Below are positions 5,115 to 56,951 of a stretch of DNA of 64,000 nt, piece after piece. Where the stretch lies: the IMG/VR virus record IMGVR_UViG_3300046170_000409; one strand, written 5' to 3'. A model generated the notes under the pieces. The model searched no databases and had not been told where the DNA came from. It was given only the letters and a program-made list of their open reading frames with translations. The position numbers and the translations under genes were made by a program. Source of the stretch: an uncultured virus (IMG/VR IMGVR_UViG_3300046170_000409). Lineage: Duplodnaviria; Heunggongvirae; Uroviricota; Caudoviricetes. How positions within the stretch are numbered: position 1 is the stretch's first letter; each line of letters begins with the position of its first letter.

Positions 5115-5891
5115 TTATAATGTTATCATCATCTGTTTTCTGCGTCCTCCACAAAAATGTAAAAAGTTCGCAAACTCAGGAAAGTCACCTAACATGATAT
5201 TTCCTTTTATTGTATTCGCACCAGTCCAATTCCATATATTGTCTAGTTCAGTTATTCTATCTAAAAGATTGTTTTTAGTCAACATTAATATCCACCACAT
5301 TTCATCAATATGAATAAATCTATTAACTACATGTTCATCAGGTTTGAATTCTGTGAATGGTAAAAACTTTTCTCTTATTTCTTTTCTCATCTTTTTTGTT
5401 GTAACCATAACACCTGTATTATACCATCTTATTTGCCCATCGTCAAAGTATGTAATATCAATTTCATGTTTATCAAAACATTCATGTATCTCATTCCATG
5501 CACTACTATATTTTCTCATAAATGCTGGATGGAAGTTGCCTTTATATTCAGCACGTTCTGGCATACAAATTAATTCACCCTCAATATCAAATATATTTGA
5601 TTTTAGTATTAGAGGATAAACATCTGAGTCAACATAAAGAATCTTCTCATATTGGTCAAAGTATGGGTCTGTAAATATTTGATATCTCTCATAGAATTTT
5701 GGATATTTTAATCCTGTTGTTTCTTCATCAAGTTTTGCCTCTTCAACAAACATATAATCTGCATCATGCCATTCAGCATATTCTATAAAACCTGATTGAG
5801 ATACTTGAGCATGTGATGGTTGACTGACAGGAGTGTCATCCTTGAGCAGTGAGTGTCTATTCGGAATGTTAACTTGAAAAACTAAATTCAT
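5115..5891 (-). CDS. GT-A fold glycosyltransferase (GT8-like)
   Basis: ILYVDSD (DxD), YNTGVMV, WN and FLHFCG motifs; TATAAGTA late-promoter variant at 5898-5905. Confidence 0.7.
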   Translation of the reverse strand: MNLVFQVNIPNRHSLLKDDTPVSQPSHAQVSQSGFIEYAEWHDADYMFVEEAKLDEETTGLKYPKFYERYQIFTDPYFDQYEKILYVDSDVYPLILKSNIFDIEGELICMPERAEYKGNFHPAFMRKYSSAWNEIHECFDKHEIDITYFDDGQIRWYNTGVMVTTKKMRKEIREKFLPFTEFKPDEHVVNRFIHIDEMWWILMLTKNNLLDRITELDNIWNWTGANTIKGNIMLGDFPEFANFLHFCGGRRKQMMITL

Positions 5892-5910
5892 TATTACTAC
5901 TTATAAAGAA

Positions 5911-5963
5911 TGCAGTGGTGCACAGTGTAAGTTGTAAGAAAAGAGAGAGTGTGCACCACTGCA
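5911..5963 (-). ncRNA. Perfect 14-bp stem with 25-nt loop; candidate terminator or antisense small RNA
   Basis: TGCAGTGGTGCACA (5911-5924) pairs with TGTGCACCACTGCA (5950-5963). On the minus strand it is followed by TTCTTT. Confidence 0.5.
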
Positions 5964-5972
5964 AGAAAATTG

Positions 5973-6188
5973 TTAGTTGTTAGATTGTCCCAACATAACT
6001 GTGCTCAATGCTTCAAGTTTATCTTGTGCATTAGCAATCTTTTCTAATTCTTTTTCTATTGTTTCTGAGTATTCAATGTGTTCAGCAACACCTTGTAAAC
6101 TTGATAAAAATATGTCAATGTTAGTTTTTGCAATTGCAATATCATTTTCATACTTGCTTTTCAAGTTCTGTAATATCTCATTTTTCAT
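5973..6188 (-). CDS. Conserved small hypothetical protein
   Basis: 71-aa ORF with AGGAGA RBS. Confidence 0.75.
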   Translation of the reverse strand: MKNEILQNLKSKYENDIAIAKTNIDIFLSSLQGVAEHIEYSETIEKELEKIANAQDKLEALSTVMLGQSNN

Positions 6189-6198
6189 AATTTTCTCC

Positions 6199-6321
6199 TT
6201 ATAATATTATATTCCAAAATATTGATATAACAGAAACGAATATGAATGCTTTTACAATATCTGGCACTTCACAGAGCACGTCGCAAAAAACATTACCAAG
6301 TTCTTTTAACTTATCCATCAT
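6199..6321 (-). CDS. Small membrane protein (40 aa)
   Basis: Translated by hand: MMDKLKELGNVFCDVLCEVPDIVKAFIFVSVISIFWNIIL; GGAGG RBS; abuts the upstream stop. Confidence 0.55.
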   Translation of the reverse strand: MMDKLKELGNVFCDVLCEVPDIVKAFIFVSVISIFWNIIL

Positions 6322-6737
6322 TACAAATATTCCTCCCAATTTAGATAAAGTTTATACAATATCTCTTGTAGTCTATATGCTTGTTGTTCCCATGGTTGTT
6401 TGCTATATGGAGTATCAGTATAATCTTTACCTTTCCAATATTGCTTAGTATGGGTGTCTTTTAATAACCTGTACGCATATTGCCAAACATGAACCATTTC
6501 GTGAATGACACAGGTTATAAAATCATCTTCTTTTTTTATCCTATTATCAATTTCAATTTCAAATTCTCTACTTGATAATGCCAGACAATATCCTTCAGCA
6601 TCATCTATTTTCTTTAGATTGATATCGATGTCAAGAGTACGAAGTCTTGGCATCATGTAATCAATACACCAGAAAACTACATCTTCAACGAGTTCTCGTT
6701 GTTTTTTATTTCCACCTCTCACGGAAATAGTATTCAT
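6321..6737 (-). CDS. Zincin-like metallopeptidase-domain protein
   Basis: HEMVHVWQ (HExxH) plus downstream PWEQQA. Confidence 0.7.
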   Translation of the reverse strand: MNTISVRGGNKKQRELVEDVVFWCIDYMMPRLRTLDIDINLKKIDDAEGYCLALSSREFEIEIDNRIKKEDDFITCVIHEMVHVWQYAYRLLKDTHTKQYWKGKDYTDTPYSKQPWEQQAYRLQEILYKLYLNWEEYL

Positions 6738-6935: not shown

Positions 6936-6975
6936 ATTTTCTTCTCCTATTTATCTTAATTTAACTTACAGATAG

Positions 6976-7018: not shown

Positions 7019-7621
7019 TTATTTCAGTTTTTTTGCCTCATTTGGCATACGAGACTCCTTAGTATAGGTCTCAATATCATATTTTGCACATAATTCTTTA
7101 TAATGTTCGATTTCCCCCTCGTTATAGGGAAATTTAATCATCTGCCAACCTATACGACGACCCATCTTTTTACCTAGTACCATCGCATTAAAAACAGAAT
7201 CGAAGTCTGTATTCACACGATATTTTTCTGCCGATTCTTGAGTGACACCATCTAGTCCAAACAACCATTGTACTCTTTTTGAATATGAGAATGCTTTCTC
7301 CCACCATTCTATTTTTTTGCCAGAACCATTAGTGGAGATAACCAAAGTGCCTTTATCTCTTTCGTCGAACAATTTAAGAATATCAAGAAACTTTGGATGA
7401 TATATTGCATCAGAAATATTACCACAAAAGTGCATATTGGTAGAGAATTTAAGAATCTTTTTAAAATCCTCAATGGGCATATCACGATATAGTTTTATAA
7501 GTTCCTTACCAAAATCAGTTTGACGCATACAAAAAGGACACTGCAATCCACATCTAAAAGATATTTCTAGATGCATATAAATTGCATTCATTGTATGTTC
7601 TATGTATCTTTCGTACCGCAT
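7019..7621 (-). CDS. Radical SAM protein
   Basis: CGLQCPFC (CxxxCxxC), STNG, FGLDG. Confidence 0.8.
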   Translation of the reverse strand: MRYERYIEHTMNAIYMHLEISFRCGLQCPFCMRQTDFGKELIKLYRDMPIEDFKKILKFSTNMHFCGNISDAIYHPKFLDILKLFDERDKGTLVISTNGSGKKIEWWEKAFSYSKRVQWLFGLDGVTQESAEKYRVNTDFDSVFNAMVLGKKMGRRIGWQMIKFPYNEGEIEHYKELCAKYDIETYTKESRMPNEAKKLK

Positions 7622-7893
7622 TTTATTTTACAGATTGGGGCAGGGTTATCACTTTCCATTCGTTTATGAAATTTAATCCATGCCTTTGAATAGAATATGT
7701 CTTCAACTGATTCTACGTTTTCGATCTTTAAATTATCATCATAGAATCCATTTTCTTCGAAATATTTATTATGGGAAATACACCAACAGCATGGCAAAAG
7801 ATGACCAGTGCCTGTGTAAAAGACTCCTTGCACCCACTCAGTTTGTTCTTCAGATGGTGTTGTGTATACTTGTTTGCATTTTGGTTTAATCAT
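7600..7893 (-). CDS. Stand-alone SPASM/twitch-like Fe-S domain protein
   Basis: PKC...GHLLPCCW...CKIKC. Likely start is MIKPKC, overlapping the gp41 stop (ATGA), rather than the track start at 7941. Confidence 0.6.
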   Translation of the reverse strand: MIKPKCKQVYTTPSEEQTEWVQGVFYTGTGHLLPCCWCISHNKYFEENGFYDDNLKIENVESVEDIFYSKAWIKFHKRMESDNPAPICKIKCGTKDT

Positions 7894-16967: not shown

Positions 16968-17297
16968 TTAGTTCTCCATATTAGATATATCAGTTGCTTG
17001 TTGTTTATTTAAAATCGGCACTGCATTAGATTTATGCATTGTCGCAATTCCTTTAATTAAAGTTCCTGTATATTTCATTGGTTCTTTTTTGTGAGCAATT
17101 CCACCACAAGAGGGAGCACTTGTTGATGTGTCTTCCCTCGTATAGAGAGGTTGTGGTGGAACGTATTGCCCTGTAGAAATCTTTTTCTTCTTATGTAATC
17201 TTTTTGTACTAGCAAGGAAATCGCTATACTTTTTTTGTTCTTTCGCTAAAGTGTGTTCACGTTGCCTTGCTAGTTTTTTCCATTTAGGTGTGCTCAT
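16968..17297 (-). CDS. Conserved basic hypothetical protein
   Basis: YTGTLIKGIATMHKSNAVP motif, typical of T4-like phage early genes. Confidence 0.75.
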   Translation of the reverse strand: MSTPKWKKLARQREHTLAKEQKKYSDFLASTKRLHKKKKISTGQYVPPQPLYTREDTSTSAPSCGGIAHKKEPMKYTGTLIKGIATMHKSNAVPILNKQQATDISNMEN

Positions 17298-17516: not shown

Positions 17517-17549
17517 ATAATAACCTCTCTATAATTAACTTACAGAGAC

Positions 17550-22968: not shown

Positions 22969-22991
22969 GTGGGGACTGTGAATGTCCCCAC
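22969..22991 (-). terminator. Intrinsic terminator-like hairpin
   Basis: GTGGGGAC/GTCCCCAC stem followed by TTTCGCATTTTTT on the minus strand. Confidence 0.65.
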
Positions 22992-23014
22992 GTTTCTTGT
23001 TGAGTTTAAGATTA

Positions 23015-23296
23015 TTAACTTTTGTAAGAAAAGTCAGTACCAGAAACTGCTTTAAGACCTGCTGCAATAATTGCTTTAGATGGTTCGCCAAGTCTGTATG
23101 TTGTTTTACCATCAACTTTATTCACGTAGATGCAATTACCTTCATTACGAAGTGAATCAATCATTGCTCTTGGTGAAGTAAGGTCAAACCTGTTTCTTAG
23201 TGTAGTCCAAGCAACGTTTTTACCTGTTGATAAAAGTTTCATTACTTTTTCTTTTTTTGTCATTTTACTTCTACTCATATTATATTTCTCCTTCAA
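23015..23296 (-). CDS. Small basic, probably winged-HTH DNA-binding protein
   Basis: SPRAMIDSLRNEG..IY...YRLG pattern; probable start MSRSK at 23278; own promoter at 23319-23347. Confidence 0.6.
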   Translation of the reverse strand: MKEKYNMSRSKMTKKEKVMKLLSTGKNVAWTTLRNRFDLTSPRAMIDSLRNEGNCIYVNKVDGKTTYRLGEPSKAIIAAGLKAVSGTDFSYKS

Positions 23297-26859: not shown

Positions 26860-27258
26860 TTAATTTTTCTTACCAATATTGTATTTGGTCACTAACTCCC
26901 ATTCATTCTTTTCTTTATATGGAAGGACTTTAATTTGTGATAGTGGTGCAACAGGTGATTCTGTTTTTGCAGGATCCACTAACTTAACTAATCCCCATTC
27001 TGCAATTAAATTTGCAATTGTATTTCTTCTTGCCTTATCTTCATCTACAAAGTTACTTGGTTTGCCATCTAATGCAAATAATTCTTTAAAATGCACAATA
27101 TAATATTTACCTTGTTTATGTAGAATATGACATGATTGATATATAATTTTATCTTTACGAGATGCCACACCAATCCTTGTTAGTGTCTCTCGTATTTTAA
27201 GAAAGTCATCATCATCACTGATAGTAACTTCCACTAAACTTTCAAGCATTTTTGCCAC
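26860..27258 (-). CDS. regA: Translational repressor RegA
   Basis: DDFLKIRETLTRIGVAS, QSCHILHKQGKYYIVHFKELF. Confidence 0.96.
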   Translation of the reverse strand: MAKMLESLVEVTISDDDDFLKIRETLTRIGVASRKDKIIYQSCHILHKQGKYYIVHFKELFALDGKPSNFVDEDKARRNTIANLIAEWGLVKLVDPAKTESPVAPLSQIKVLPYKEKNEWELVTKYNIGKKN

Positions 27259-32482: not shown

Positions 32483-32522
32483 AATATATTTTCCTCTCTC
32501 AAAATTAACAACTTATACGAGA

Positions 32523-32647
32523 ATGATATCCTATCCAAAAAGAAATGTCAACACCTAATTTGTGTTTTTTACAAGTTTTTTTAGGGTTTTTAGGGTTTTT
32601 TCTCATATTTACACCCCAATGATATCCTATCTAAAAAGAAATGTCAA
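32523..32647 (-). promoter_or_regulatory. Two tandem near-identical early promoters (32523-32551 and 32619-32647)
   Basis: TTGACATTTCTTTTT(G/A)GATAGGATATCAT. Confidence 0.8.
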
Positions 32648-32695: not shown

Positions 32696-34898
32696 TTAAG
32701 CGACCATATCAATGAATTTAGATAGCATAACTCTGGATTCTTTTCTACCTTTGTTCGCTTTTCTAAAGGCATTCTTAATTTGACCTTTGGTAGCATCCGA
32801 ACTAACTTGGATTTCACCATTTGAAGTCGCCATAGAATCACCACCAGCGAGAGCAAAGTATTTTGAATAACCACTATTTGGAATTGTTATCCATCTGTTC
32901 TTTTTCAATTCAGCATGTTTTGATTCTAAGTCAGAATAGTTCCTAATATAACCTTGTAGATTAGACATCACTTCTCTTTTATTAACAGGAATGATTCTAT
33001 ATCCAATCACATTTGCGTTAGTTCTGTCTCTCAATCTTCTTAGCAACAAATTAGTTATACCATAATATGATTCTCTAATTACATATGATTTCTTAGTCAC
33101 TTTATCATGAATGAAACCTTTTGTTGTTACTTCTACTTTATTGTCATAGTCATATTTCTTTCTTGTAAAATGAGAAATATATGCACTACTCATAGATGGA
33201 ACATATTCTTTTGTTTCTGCATCGTATTGTTCACTTGCAACAGCAACTTTACTAGGATGCGAATCACCATCAGTCAAGAATACCATATTGACAATATCAA
33301 GTCCATTTTCTTTTTTGAATTCATCAAACAATTGTGGAGCACAGATAATTGCAGTATCAAGTGGTGTTCCACCTAAACCAAGTGGATGTGGAACATTGTA
33401 ATATGATGGGATTGCTTCTTTTAAGAAACACATAAGTTCTAGCATTTCATTAATTTCTTTTCTTCTCATAGTCTTACTATTAAAGAATTCCATAAGTCTG
33501 AATTCTTCATCAGCATAAGTCTCTTTATCTTTTTTAACAGGAGTTACACTATGCAAAGTATGGGCATTATCATAAGAATCGCACCATGCTCTGCCTCTAT
33601 CAGTAAAGGCATAGACTCTGTATGGGATCTGAACCTGCTTACAGAACATGACGAGGTTCATCATTTGGTCCAAAGTATTTCCCATGTCATTATGCATAGA
33701 ACCAGACCAATCAAGAAACATCATCAAACCATGATTCTTACCTTCAGGCACTACAGTCATCTTTTTAAAGATGTCGTCTGAATACCTATAATTATTCATC
33801 AATACAGGATCTATAACACCAGTCTTTGCAACAGAAGATCTAGCATACTCAGATGCTTTTTTCTTCATCTCAAATTCTTTTACGAGATAGTTAATAGTCT
33901 TTTTGTTATTAACTAAAAACTTTTTGAATAGTTTTTTTTGAATGTACTTTTTGATTTTCAGGATACTGTTCAAGAACTAATTTCGCTGGAACAATATGCT
34001 GAGAAATATTTTCTTCAGAAAAGTATATATTTTCTACATGACTAGTTTCAGAAAATTCTTGAGCAATATTATCACTCAATGCTCTTTCAGTGACACTTAC
34101 TGGTTCTTGATTTTCGAAATCTTCCCCATTTGCGAGAGAGTTTCCTGCTTGAATTTCTTCATCGGTATCGATGGAGTCGTCAGTTTCTTCTTCCATTGAG
34201 TCCTGTGACGAGTTATTTGCGTCGCCCTCATATTCTTCATCAGATTCATTTTCGTCTGATTCAGATTGTCCCATCTCTTCCATTTCTTCTTCAGCGATGA
34301 GTTCGTCCATTTCTGATTTAAGTTCTTGTTCATGCTCATGTTTCTCAACCGCATCAGCATAGAGTCTACTAGCGATTTCAACTGCTTGCTCAAATGTTTC
34401 AACATCTTTAATTTCGTTAACAATAAGTTTTTCATCTTTATCAAATTCAATTCCAAAAGATTCACCACACTTGAAATGAGTATTCAATCTGTCAATCAAG
34501 TTTAGACTATTTATCTCATCTATACTAGTACCAAAGAATCCTTCAGCAAACATCTTTTTATAAGATTTAACGAAGTCGTGTCTCAATCCTGGATATTTTC
34601 TTTGAATTAGTTTTTCAATCCTAGCATCTTCAACGACATTTAAGAATGATTGAAAACCTCTAGATTTATCTTTAAGTGAACCGACCCATTTATCACCATC
34701 AGTATAAAGAGCATGACCGACTTCATGTCCTACTAAATGATTATAGGTAAAGTTTTCCATATCTTTCCACGCAGGTAAAGTCAGTATTCTGTCTTTTACA
34801 TTGAAAGATGCAGTTTTTACTTTTTCTTGAACCACAGTAATATTTTCAGTGGCAAGTAATTTTGCTAAAATGTCTTTATTCATATTTTTCTCTCTCAT
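32696..34898 (-). CDS. CobT-like protein: N-terminal HExxH domain, acidic linker, C-terminal vWA domain; +1 frameshift near 33932-33939
   Basis: HEVGH in ORF 33909..34898; DWSGSM (MIDAS), GGTPL and LTDG in ORF 32696..33973. Removing one A from an A8 run joins them. Confidence 0.85.
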
Positions 34899-34937: not shown

Positions 34938-35011
34938 GTATTTGACCAAACTTTTTTGTCCTGTAAGTTGTTGATTTTACAGGATATTTAAAAAAAGTTG
35001 AAAAAAAGTTT

Positions 35012-35985: not shown

Positions 35986-36018
35986 TTTTAACCTCTCTTT
36001 TAATTAACTTACAGGACA

Positions 36019-55360: not shown

Positions 55361-55400
55361 AATTTATCTCCTTATTGTCAGTATTTATAAAGAATTAGAA

Positions 55401-56922: not shown

Positions 56923-56951
56923 TGGACAGCACTATTTATAAGTGCTGTCCA
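56923..56951 (-). promoter_or_regulatory. Late promoter TATAAATA embedded in an 11-bp inverted repeat
   Basis: TGGACAGCACT-atttata-AGTGCTGTCCA. Confidence 0.75.

Follow-up and report, generated by a model that had tools for sequence, protein, structure and literature searches.

Bacterial small RNAs that derive from 3' untranslated regions (UTRs) and bear a terminator act by base pairing: their seed lies beside or within the U-tailed terminator hairpin, and they pair with ribosome-binding sites. Antisense RNAs embedded in operons occur in phages P1/P7 (c4) and P4 (CI). Here we describe a hairpin at positions 5911-5963 (minus strand) of a 64,000-nucleotide (nt) stretch of DNA, hereafter the window, which is part of an uncultured marine T4-like myophage (IMG/VR record IMGVR_UViG_3300046170_000409), and whose loop is antisense to the leaders of early mRNAs. 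Like the RNAs above, the hairpin has a single-stranded seed near or in a U-tailed terminator and would be made from the 3' part of an mRNA; unlike them, it carries the seed inside the loop of a very long stem, and the hairpin RNA itself is putative. Judged by titles and abstracts, the 12 best of 90 papers from a full-text search describe no such RNA for lytic phages, and the terms 'early gene', 'lytic phage' and 'phage T4' are all missing from a 2025 review of phage small RNAs. We propose that the hairpin may be a base-pairing regulator that acts in trans on early leaders, with CobS-type leaders as its best targets, and we put the probability of this reading at roughly 0.45.

How T4-like phages switch off their early genes is understood only in part, even in T4. 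We know of no RegB in the marine and freshwater relatives of T4, and no RegB homologue was found among the 44 open reading frames (ORFs) of the window that were scanned (30 + 14). A homologue of the RegA-type translational repressor is encoded at 26860-27258 (minus strand; phrog_242, E 2e-58), adjoining the clamp-loader genes. In T4, RegB cuts GGAG Shine-Dalgarno (SD) motifs and RegA occludes start regions, which leads to the inactivation of early mRNAs (PMC3014915, in the part used here). The outcome that we propose for the hairpin is the same, that is, early mRNAs inactivated at their translation initiation regions; the agents in T4 are proteins, whereas the candidate agent here is an RNA. 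If the proposal is right, an RNA that recognizes a shared, private leader would be a compact and evolvable alternative to such proteins, and a new kind of phage regulator.

The early regions of T4-type phages also contain promoter-early stem-loop (PeSL) cassettes, at whose boundaries modules are gained, lost or swapped (PMC2839356, PMC4122927), and one crossover of PeSL-mediated shuffling was mapped within the stem-loop's loop (PMC2839356). In the portions of these descriptions drawn on here, no sequence-specific role is given to the loop (PMC2839356, PMC4122927). The hairpin resembles the PeSLs in several respects. Both are intergenic stem-loops, and both border modules that close relatives have gained, lost or swapped in a variable part of a T4-like phage's early genes; near-identical cassettes of a sigma-70 promoter, a leader and an SD motif are repeated through the region; and the hairpin sits at a replacement boundary, as the gene order after the gene just upstream of it, which encodes 71 amino acids (aa), differs in 23 of 24 loci. 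It departs from the PeSLs in that no promoter follows it, the six promoters of the family lying elsewhere, and in that its loop is 25 nt long and is the antisense of the cassette's own leader. Another parallel is found in plastid DNA, where short inverted repeats allow the 4-50 bp between them to flip (PMC12371153, in the part used here), as could turn a sense into an antisense leader; unlike the plastid cases, the hairpin is seen in one orientation, and a sense leader between its arms would have no obvious role.

Structure, position and complementarity of the hairpin

On the minus strand, a perfect 14-bp stem, in which 8 of the 14 pairs are G-C, encloses a 25-nt loop that is free of G. The 5' arm, TGCAGTGGTGCACA, occupies 5950-5963, the loop, CUCUCUCUUUUCUUACAACUUACAC (= CTCTCTCTTTTCTTACAACTTACAC), 5925-5949 and the 3' arm, TGTGCACCACTGCA, 5911-5924. 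Sequence, folding and repeat scans bear out the stem and loop that the original prediction had described; the coordinates it gave, 5905-5968, do hold the hairpin and take in a few flanking bases besides. The folding energy is -26.3 kcal/mol (z -5.38), and none of 200 shuffled sequences was equally stable; an 81-nt version yields -24.4 kcal/mol (z -6.24). The loop is unpaired in both the minimum-free-energy and the centroid structures and has no internal structure. In two repeat scans of the window, which allowed arms up to 45 nt and up to 60 nt apart, the hairpin was the longest perfect inverted repeat.

An early operon, made up of the promoter P7004 and three or four small genes, closes at its 3' end with the hairpin, a GC-clamped stem-loop of the terminator type. 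It starts 9 nt past the stop codon of the 71-aa gene (5973-6188, minus strand; phrog_1811, E 5.9e-16), and 19 nt separate its end from the ATG of a family-8 glycosyltransferase gene (5115-5891, minus strand); it is intergenic and lies inside the operon. The 71-aa gene is the last of a block that is 99% identical to the closest relative, a locus that we call L001, and the glycosyltransferase gene is the first of a block that is about 10% divergent from it. The 3' flank of the hairpin is U-rich and opens with AUUCUUUAU (ATTCTTTAT), and this tail and spacer, ATTCTTTATAAGTAGTAATA (5892-5910, minus strand), reach to the glycosyltransferase ATG. There is no promoter between the hairpin and this ATG, nor an SD motif upstream of it. 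A G+C-rich stem followed by a U tract is characteristic of an intrinsic terminator; the plus-strand side of the hairpin has no comparable U-rich run. No Rfam 15 family reached its gathering score, the lone match being U6atac at 17.1 bits (gathering 33, E = 0.37).

Six near-identical early promoters (TTGACATTTCTTTTTGGATAGGATATCAT and variants) are found in the window, all on the minus strand, and their pattern has eight matches with at most two mismatches, six of them exact, against 0.08 expected. Most early transcripts are predicted to open with (T/G)TGTAAGTT or TATAAGTT, 5 nt past the -10 element, the starts being predicted and not mapped. Their leaders share one layout, namely a 5' module, a variable A/T-rich linker, GAGAG(G) and the ATG. 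Read as its reverse complement, GTGTAAGTTGTAAGAAAAGAGAGAG, the loop belongs to the same family of leaders: in the loop, CTCTCTC is the complement of the SD module and AACTTACA that of the 5' end. The copy runs from roughly the first base of the transcript to where the ribosome-binding motif stops, and excludes the promoter bases, the spacer and the ATG.

When the loop was paired with 84 start regions of the window, the first four ranks were taken by early leaders, and two more early leaders came sixth and eleventh. The best predicted partner is the leader of the CobS-like gene (promoter and leader at 32483-32551; -20.6 kcal/mol), where 18 of 25 positions match without gaps at 32494-32518. The leader of P36047 (35986-36047; -19.0 kcal/mol) matches in blocks of 8 and 9 nt at 35993-36013, that of P34937 (34888-34937; -18.4 kcal/mol) through GAGAGAG at 34890-34896, and that of P17578 (17517-17578; -15.8 kcal/mol) in blocks of 8 and 6 nt at 17525-17544. 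P7004 (6936-7004), the promoter of the hairpin's own operon, with an indel relative to L001 just upstream, has a leader that opens with TGTAAGTT and matches over 8 nt at 6963-6970. All five matches had been listed in the original prediction and recur as given there. A weaker member of the family, P16363 (16310-16363), came from the promoter scan and the duplex ranking; all of these cassettes lie on the minus strand.

The complementarity is specific to early leaders. The mean duplex energy of the loop is -16.8 kcal/mol with the six early leaders versus -7.05 kcal/mol with the 78 other start regions; only one of 300 shuffled loops reached the early-leader mean, and none of 300 reached the rank sum of 27. 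Moreover, the two-module motif TGTAAGTT-N4-12-GAGAG was found three times against 0.02 expected, a count that none of 100 shuffles reached, and its occurrences are two true leaders and, on the opposite strand, the loop itself. In a blind scan of the window for perfect hairpins that contain G-C pairs and have a loop complement with 8 nt or more in common with upstream regions, the hairpin was the top match, with six start regions versus two, three and one in three controls. Insulation of the downstream gene in cis by the loop is not supported: the glycosyltransferase start region is outside the 20 best of the 84 loop partners.

The tail at 5892-5910 also contains TATAAGTA, a 7/8 match to the late-promoter box. 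The flank TTCTTTATAAGTAG is identical to the late-promoter context TTCTTTATAAATACTG at 55400 save for an A to G change in the box, and, if active, this late-promoter-like flank would start the glycosyltransferase mRNA 0-1 nt before the ATG.

The closest relative and an analogous element elsewhere

Twenty-four IMG/VR loci encode the 71-aa protein, and the hairpin is present only in the closest of them, L001, whose protein is 97% identical; in the other 23, at no more than 73% identity, a different gene directly follows the 71-aa gene. With the glycosyltransferase gene as the anchor, a single relative was recovered, on the contig of L001. The stem of L001 has three changes, two of which make up a compensatory replacement of C-G by U-A at 5953/5921, while the third opens the closing pair at 5924. 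The L001 hairpin still folds (-21.6 kcal/mol, z -6.7), and its loop is identical at all 25 positions. The one compensated pair points to some constraint on the stem.

Between 7019 and 5954, the window and L001 show about 13 differences in about 1,066 nt, seven of them clustered in a small ORF, versus 4-18 differences per 100 nt below 5900, so that at the hairpin divergence rises abruptly from about 1% to about 10%. Where the block meets P7004 at its opposite limit, 874 bp are present in the window and missing from L001. The hairpin therefore lies exactly on the mosaic boundary of a promoter-headed module. A radical-SAM-like gene (200 aa) and a 113-aa gene at 7020-7893 are in the window and missing from the 97%-identical L001, where the helicase gene is followed by 46 nt and then by the P7004 cassette. 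An apparent 132-nt intergenic region (6199-6339, minus strand) holds a hydrophobic ORF of about 42 aa. A hairpin-loop inversion at the cluster of differences at 6265-6279 was considered and rejected, as the cluster is coding variation in a small ORF.

Outside this pair, we found an analogous element linked to CobS. In L123/L127, whose CobS is 58% identical to that of the window, a 12-bp GC stem with a 24-nt loop, TTCATCTTACAGTCACCTTTCTCT, which has one G, and with a U-rich tail follows a small winged-helix-like gene downstream of CobS. The complement of this loop resembles a ribosome-binding site, a 7-nt spacer and an ATG, and the loop matches its own CobS leader over 10 nt and 8 nt. In L133-135, where the neighbouring protein is 77% identical, the 14-bp stem is a different one (GGAGAGTGGAGGGG / CCCCTCCACTCTCC), yet 21 consecutive loop bases are identical. 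The stem/loop architecture that the original prediction had proposed to look for in related phages does occur in another lineage (L130/L133), as an analogous hairpin whose loop is conserved although its stem has been replaced. In L133, the CobS leader opens with TGTAAGTTG, the window's 5' module, and has a 10-nt match to its own loop. In L125/126 (73.5% nucleotide identity), the homologous antisense stretch is single-stranded and lies just 5' of a short-loop terminator, and that of L125 has an 11-nt match to its own CobS start region.

The CobS leaders of the clade are homologous, with T(G/A)TAAGTTG, then GAGAG and then ATATT-ATG, and in L130, L133 and L125 the best in-locus match is always the CobS leader, as it is for the loop of the window. 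The longest exact matches are 10 and 11 nt within the own locus versus 7 and 9 nt across lineages; in L097 the own-locus match is just 7 nt. The L130/L133 loop is a circular permutation of the leader antisense, and not a simple inversion of it. No contiguous sense copy of this loop was found in the 125-kb and 70-kb contigs of the L130/L133 lineage, and the 9-mer of the 5' module occurs ten times in the 125 kb versus zero times for the reversed control. A pairing with the start region just downstream, with longest common stretches of 4 nt (L133) and 7 nt (L130), is not enough to support cis insulation. Comparison of L130, L133 and L125 shows that an antisense-leader sequence beside or inside a terminator can be conserved while the stem is replaced, and it therefore raised our prior for a function of the hairpin in the window.

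Across the 1.55 Mb of sequence analysed, we also screened for hairpins with a loop of 14-36 nt and a perfect stem of 9 bp or more, in which 5 pairs or more are G-C. There are 66 distinct long-loop GC hairpins of this kind, six of which have a G-poor loop and a U-rich tail, and four of these six are the window/L001 pair and the L130/L133 pair. In a MAFFT alignment of the four, the loops are aligned and the unrelated stems are out of register.

Several further features of the CobS leaders and terminators were seen. The CobS leaders of the clade end in ...ATATTATGA; those of L130 and L133 contain an upstream frame of 7-8 codons, with an ATG near the 5' end and a TGA that overlaps the CobS ATG, and the leader of the window (32483-32518) has a TTG-initiated frame with the same ending. 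Upstream of the CobS-like gene of the window, the early promoter is present in two tandem copies 96 bp apart (32519-32647, minus strand), as it is in a close relative. The terminator after CobS has a loop of 4 nt in the window and of 23 nt in a 93%-identical relative (L048), and terminator loop expansion therefore recurs in the lineage. In many relatives among L003-L021, which are loci with homologues of the 71-aa gene, the early sigma-70-type promoters have an ATG 5-7 nt past the -10 element, as would imply early mRNAs that are leaderless or nearly so, versus leaders of 20-35 nt with a GAGAGG ribosome-binding motif in the lineage of the window.

A possible base-pairing regulator or recombination scar

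The structure of the hairpin, its position, its specific complementarity, its compensated stem and the analogous conserved hairpin elsewhere are the observations on which we base a regulatory reading. In this model, the stem would stabilize the 3' end of the RNA and attenuate transcription into the glycosyltransferase block, and the exposed loop would pair with early mRNA leaders, best with those of the CobS type and possibly also with its own operon in cis. Such pairing might hide the ribosome-binding site and in this way reduce the translation of the paired mRNAs. Several observations support part of the early-gene shut-off RNA that was first proposed: the loop is a specific antisense of the early leaders, the hairpin closes an early block on the strand that is transcribed, and its tail is U-rich. 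A small RNA that acts in trans and shuts off early genes is putative. A decoy for a leader-binding protein, also suggested at the time, was rejected, as what the transcribed strand bears is the leader's antisense, not its sense form. Use of the sense leader from the plus strand was likewise rejected, there being no family promoter upstream; a 75-aa plus-strand ORF at 5977-6204 is without a family match.

A number of observations weigh against such a regulator. The hairpin is co-transcribed with its putative targets from an early promoter. Its 25-nt loop is atypical of an intrinsic terminator, and a terminator scan with loops of 3-8 nt did not call the site. One contig assembled from an RNA library (run X5) bridges the hairpin. 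A second (run X7) breaks at the loop, with a depth of 10.7 upstream and 3.7 downstream, and was not used as evidence, as the depths of assembled RNA-library contigs, the only form in which these libraries entered the analysis, cannot rank the parts of a gene and DNA carry-over is possible. The 5' module TGTAAGTT alone is not enriched (8 versus 4.58 expected; 12 of 100 shuffles reach 8), and an unrelated plus-strand site also matches the loop at 18 of 25 positions without gaps. Among shuffled loops, 9% do as well as the best single duplex, that with the CobS leader (-20.6 kcal/mol); CU-rich loops in general form good duplexes with purine-rich start regions.

The distribution of the element argues in the same direction. 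No diverged homologue of the hairpin was recovered, and it follows the 71-aa gene in 1 of the 24 loci. The loop 24-mer has one match in IMG/VR, on the contig of L001; the loop 21-mer has four in metagenomes, namely that contig and three copies of a stemless unrelated sequence; and blastn of 50,697 phage records gave no match to the hairpin. A search of IMG/VR for the outer 10+10 stem with any loop returned five matches, all of them unrelated. That the loop is unchanged in L001 tells us nothing, since the two sequences agree at about 99% of positions throughout the block from 7019 to 5954. In a blind scan of 80 CobS-anchored loci (921 kb), no hairpin had three targets, and 148 intergenic hairpins gave 12 antisense versus 32 sense matches, with 5 and 12 in the reversed controls, which is no enrichment; the design is therefore not general. 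Most CobS genes of the relatives end in ordinary short-loop terminators, a point that speaks for the first of the alternatives below.

This alternative, the main rival, was already foreseen in the original prediction as a captured, inverted leader fragment. The hairpin would be a PeSL-type terminator or attenuator and a recombination junction, and the loop would be a scar, a leader fragment that was captured or flipped and whose complementarity has no function. We take it as a serious competitor, though we would not wager on it. It accounts for the sharp change in divergence from L001 that the hairpin marks, and for the 874-bp indel by which the block is bounded on its far side, beside an early promoter cassette, a pattern as in PeSL-mediated shuffling. 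Hairpin-promoted small inversions of 4-50 bp are, moreover, well documented in plastid DNA (PMC12371153, in the part used here). It also fits the other leader-like elements of the window, which are found at junctions in both orientations. Three of the 11 distinct window hairpins with a perfect stem of at least 10 bp expose antisense leader segments, namely 5911-5963, 34948-35011 and 17099-17161, which we count in favour of the regulatory reading. The second of these (minus strand) consists of an outer stem of 10 bp around an inner hairpin, CCTGTAA..TTACAGG; it agrees with the CobS leader at 14 of 15 positions and with its own promoter/leader junction at 12 of 12. The latter match reaches bases that probably precede the transcription start, which counts against a regulatory origin and points to inverted copying at the level of DNA. 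Its interior, which a 10-bp inverted repeat bounds, corresponds in inverted form to 25 nt that are present in L001 in sense, as a leader-like element upstream of its P7004 homologue. A sense fragment, AAGTTGTTGATTT, lies upstream of P36047 (36075-36087, minus strand) and is counted as a recombination relic; the same fragment is present in antisense at 34965-34977 and, with one mismatch, is part of the true CobS leader. Sense fragments such as those at these two module junctions cannot be antisense regulators, and they, too, weigh against a regulatory reading. The third structure (17099-17161, minus strand; 11-12-bp stem, -35.1 kcal/mol, z -6.3) lies inside a 109-aa gene (16968-17297; phrog_27048) and exposes unpaired CCUCUCUAUAC, part of a 12/12 antisense match to the leader of its own operon (TATAGAGAGGTT).

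Other features are hard to reconcile with a functionless loop. Both conserved leader modules are intact in it (15 of 15 bases), no leader of the 64-kb window matches its linker, and the copy ends at the limits of the transcribed leader. A single loop orientation is seen: L001 and the contigs of four sequencing runs show neither a flipped loop nor joints, although rare variants are lost from contigs. In L130/L133, the analogous loop is conserved over 21 nt with the stem replaced, is a circular permutation and not a simple inversion, and has no contiguous sense copy in the contigs of its lineage. Nevertheless, the sense relics, the match of the second hairpin that reaches into a promoter and the negative global scan together keep the scar model alive. 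If it is correct, the locus would be a clean example of how promoter/leader cassettes and hairpins scramble the early regions of T4-type phages, including by small inversions that have so far been documented mainly in plastids.

Two other explanations appear much less probable. The loop might act in cis only, by pairing with the mRNA of its own operon at the 5' end (UGUAAGUU with AACUUACA, AAGAAAA with UUUUCUU), which would close the transcript from 5' to 3' and could alter its stability or the translation of the first gene without any targets in trans. The P7004 transcript is indeed predicted to open with the exact 8-nt complement of the 3' module of the loop, the two other structures match the leader of their own operon at 12 of 12 positions, and in L130, L133 and L125 the element lies at the end of the very operon whose leader it matches. 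We nonetheless regard this as improbable: the own leader is only the sixth-best partner (-14.7 kcal/mol), its two blocks are 19 nt apart versus 2 nt in the loop, the best partner, CobS, belongs to another operon 26 kb away, and the start of the P7004 transcript is predicted and not mapped. It would also be tempting to see in the G-free, pyrimidine-rich loop a landing site for a protein or the ribosome, for example, a standby site or an S1-type enhancer serving the glycosyltransferase gene, which lacks an SD motif, a patch on which Rho loads or an operator bound by a phage protein, with an incidental resemblance to antisense leaders. The lack of an SD motif in the downstream gene, the lack of G and of internal structure in the loop and the RegA-type repressor encoded by the phage would suit this idea, which we think very improbable. 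The two-module leader match is far beyond chance, the binding of a protein is a candidate idea only, and the operators of T4 RegA, as described in the part of PMC3014915 used here, are A+U-rich and overlap the AUG, unlike the loop.

If the hairpin is indeed a base-pairing regulator, it might be one of a class. The clade could carry terminator-embedded anti-leader RNAs as an RNA-only brake or timer on early protein synthesis, which would fill the role of RegB in T4, with 5911-5963 as the member of this phage. Such RNAs would take the form either of long GC-clamped hairpins or of a single strand just before a terminator, and would display the complement of the phage's early leader and ribosome-binding site, with the CobS-type leader at the centre; to these, 34948-35011 and 17099-17161 would add members that act in cis. 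This generalization is tentative, and we consider it somewhat doubtful.

Phage context and minor observations

The window encodes a DNA polymerase, a clamp and clamp loader, UvsX, a DnaB-like helicase, a portal, a sheath and a major capsid protein, as well as a terminase, the CobS-like ATPase and 2OG oxygenases. Among isolates, Pelagibacter phage Mosig has the closest capsid protein, with 65.7% identity. The G+C content is 31-37%, and 82 of the 94 ORFs obtained by simple greedy calling are on the minus strand.

A homologue (37% identity) of the winged-helix-like gene whose counterpart precedes the anti-leader element in L130/L133/L125 is found at 23015-23278 on the minus strand of the window, and its last codons share a 12-mer, CTTTTCTTACAA, with the hairpin loop. 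Before the terminator of this gene, at 22990-23035, complementarity to the CobS leader is weak (a score of 12, reached in 63 of 2000 shuffles and in 0.65% of genomic windows) and is suggestive only.

Finally, an 11-bp perfect hairpin at 56923-56951 (minus strand), between the tail-tube-region and portal genes, carries the late-promoter box TATAAATA in its loop of 7-9 nt; at this site, a terminator and a late promoter therefore overlap.

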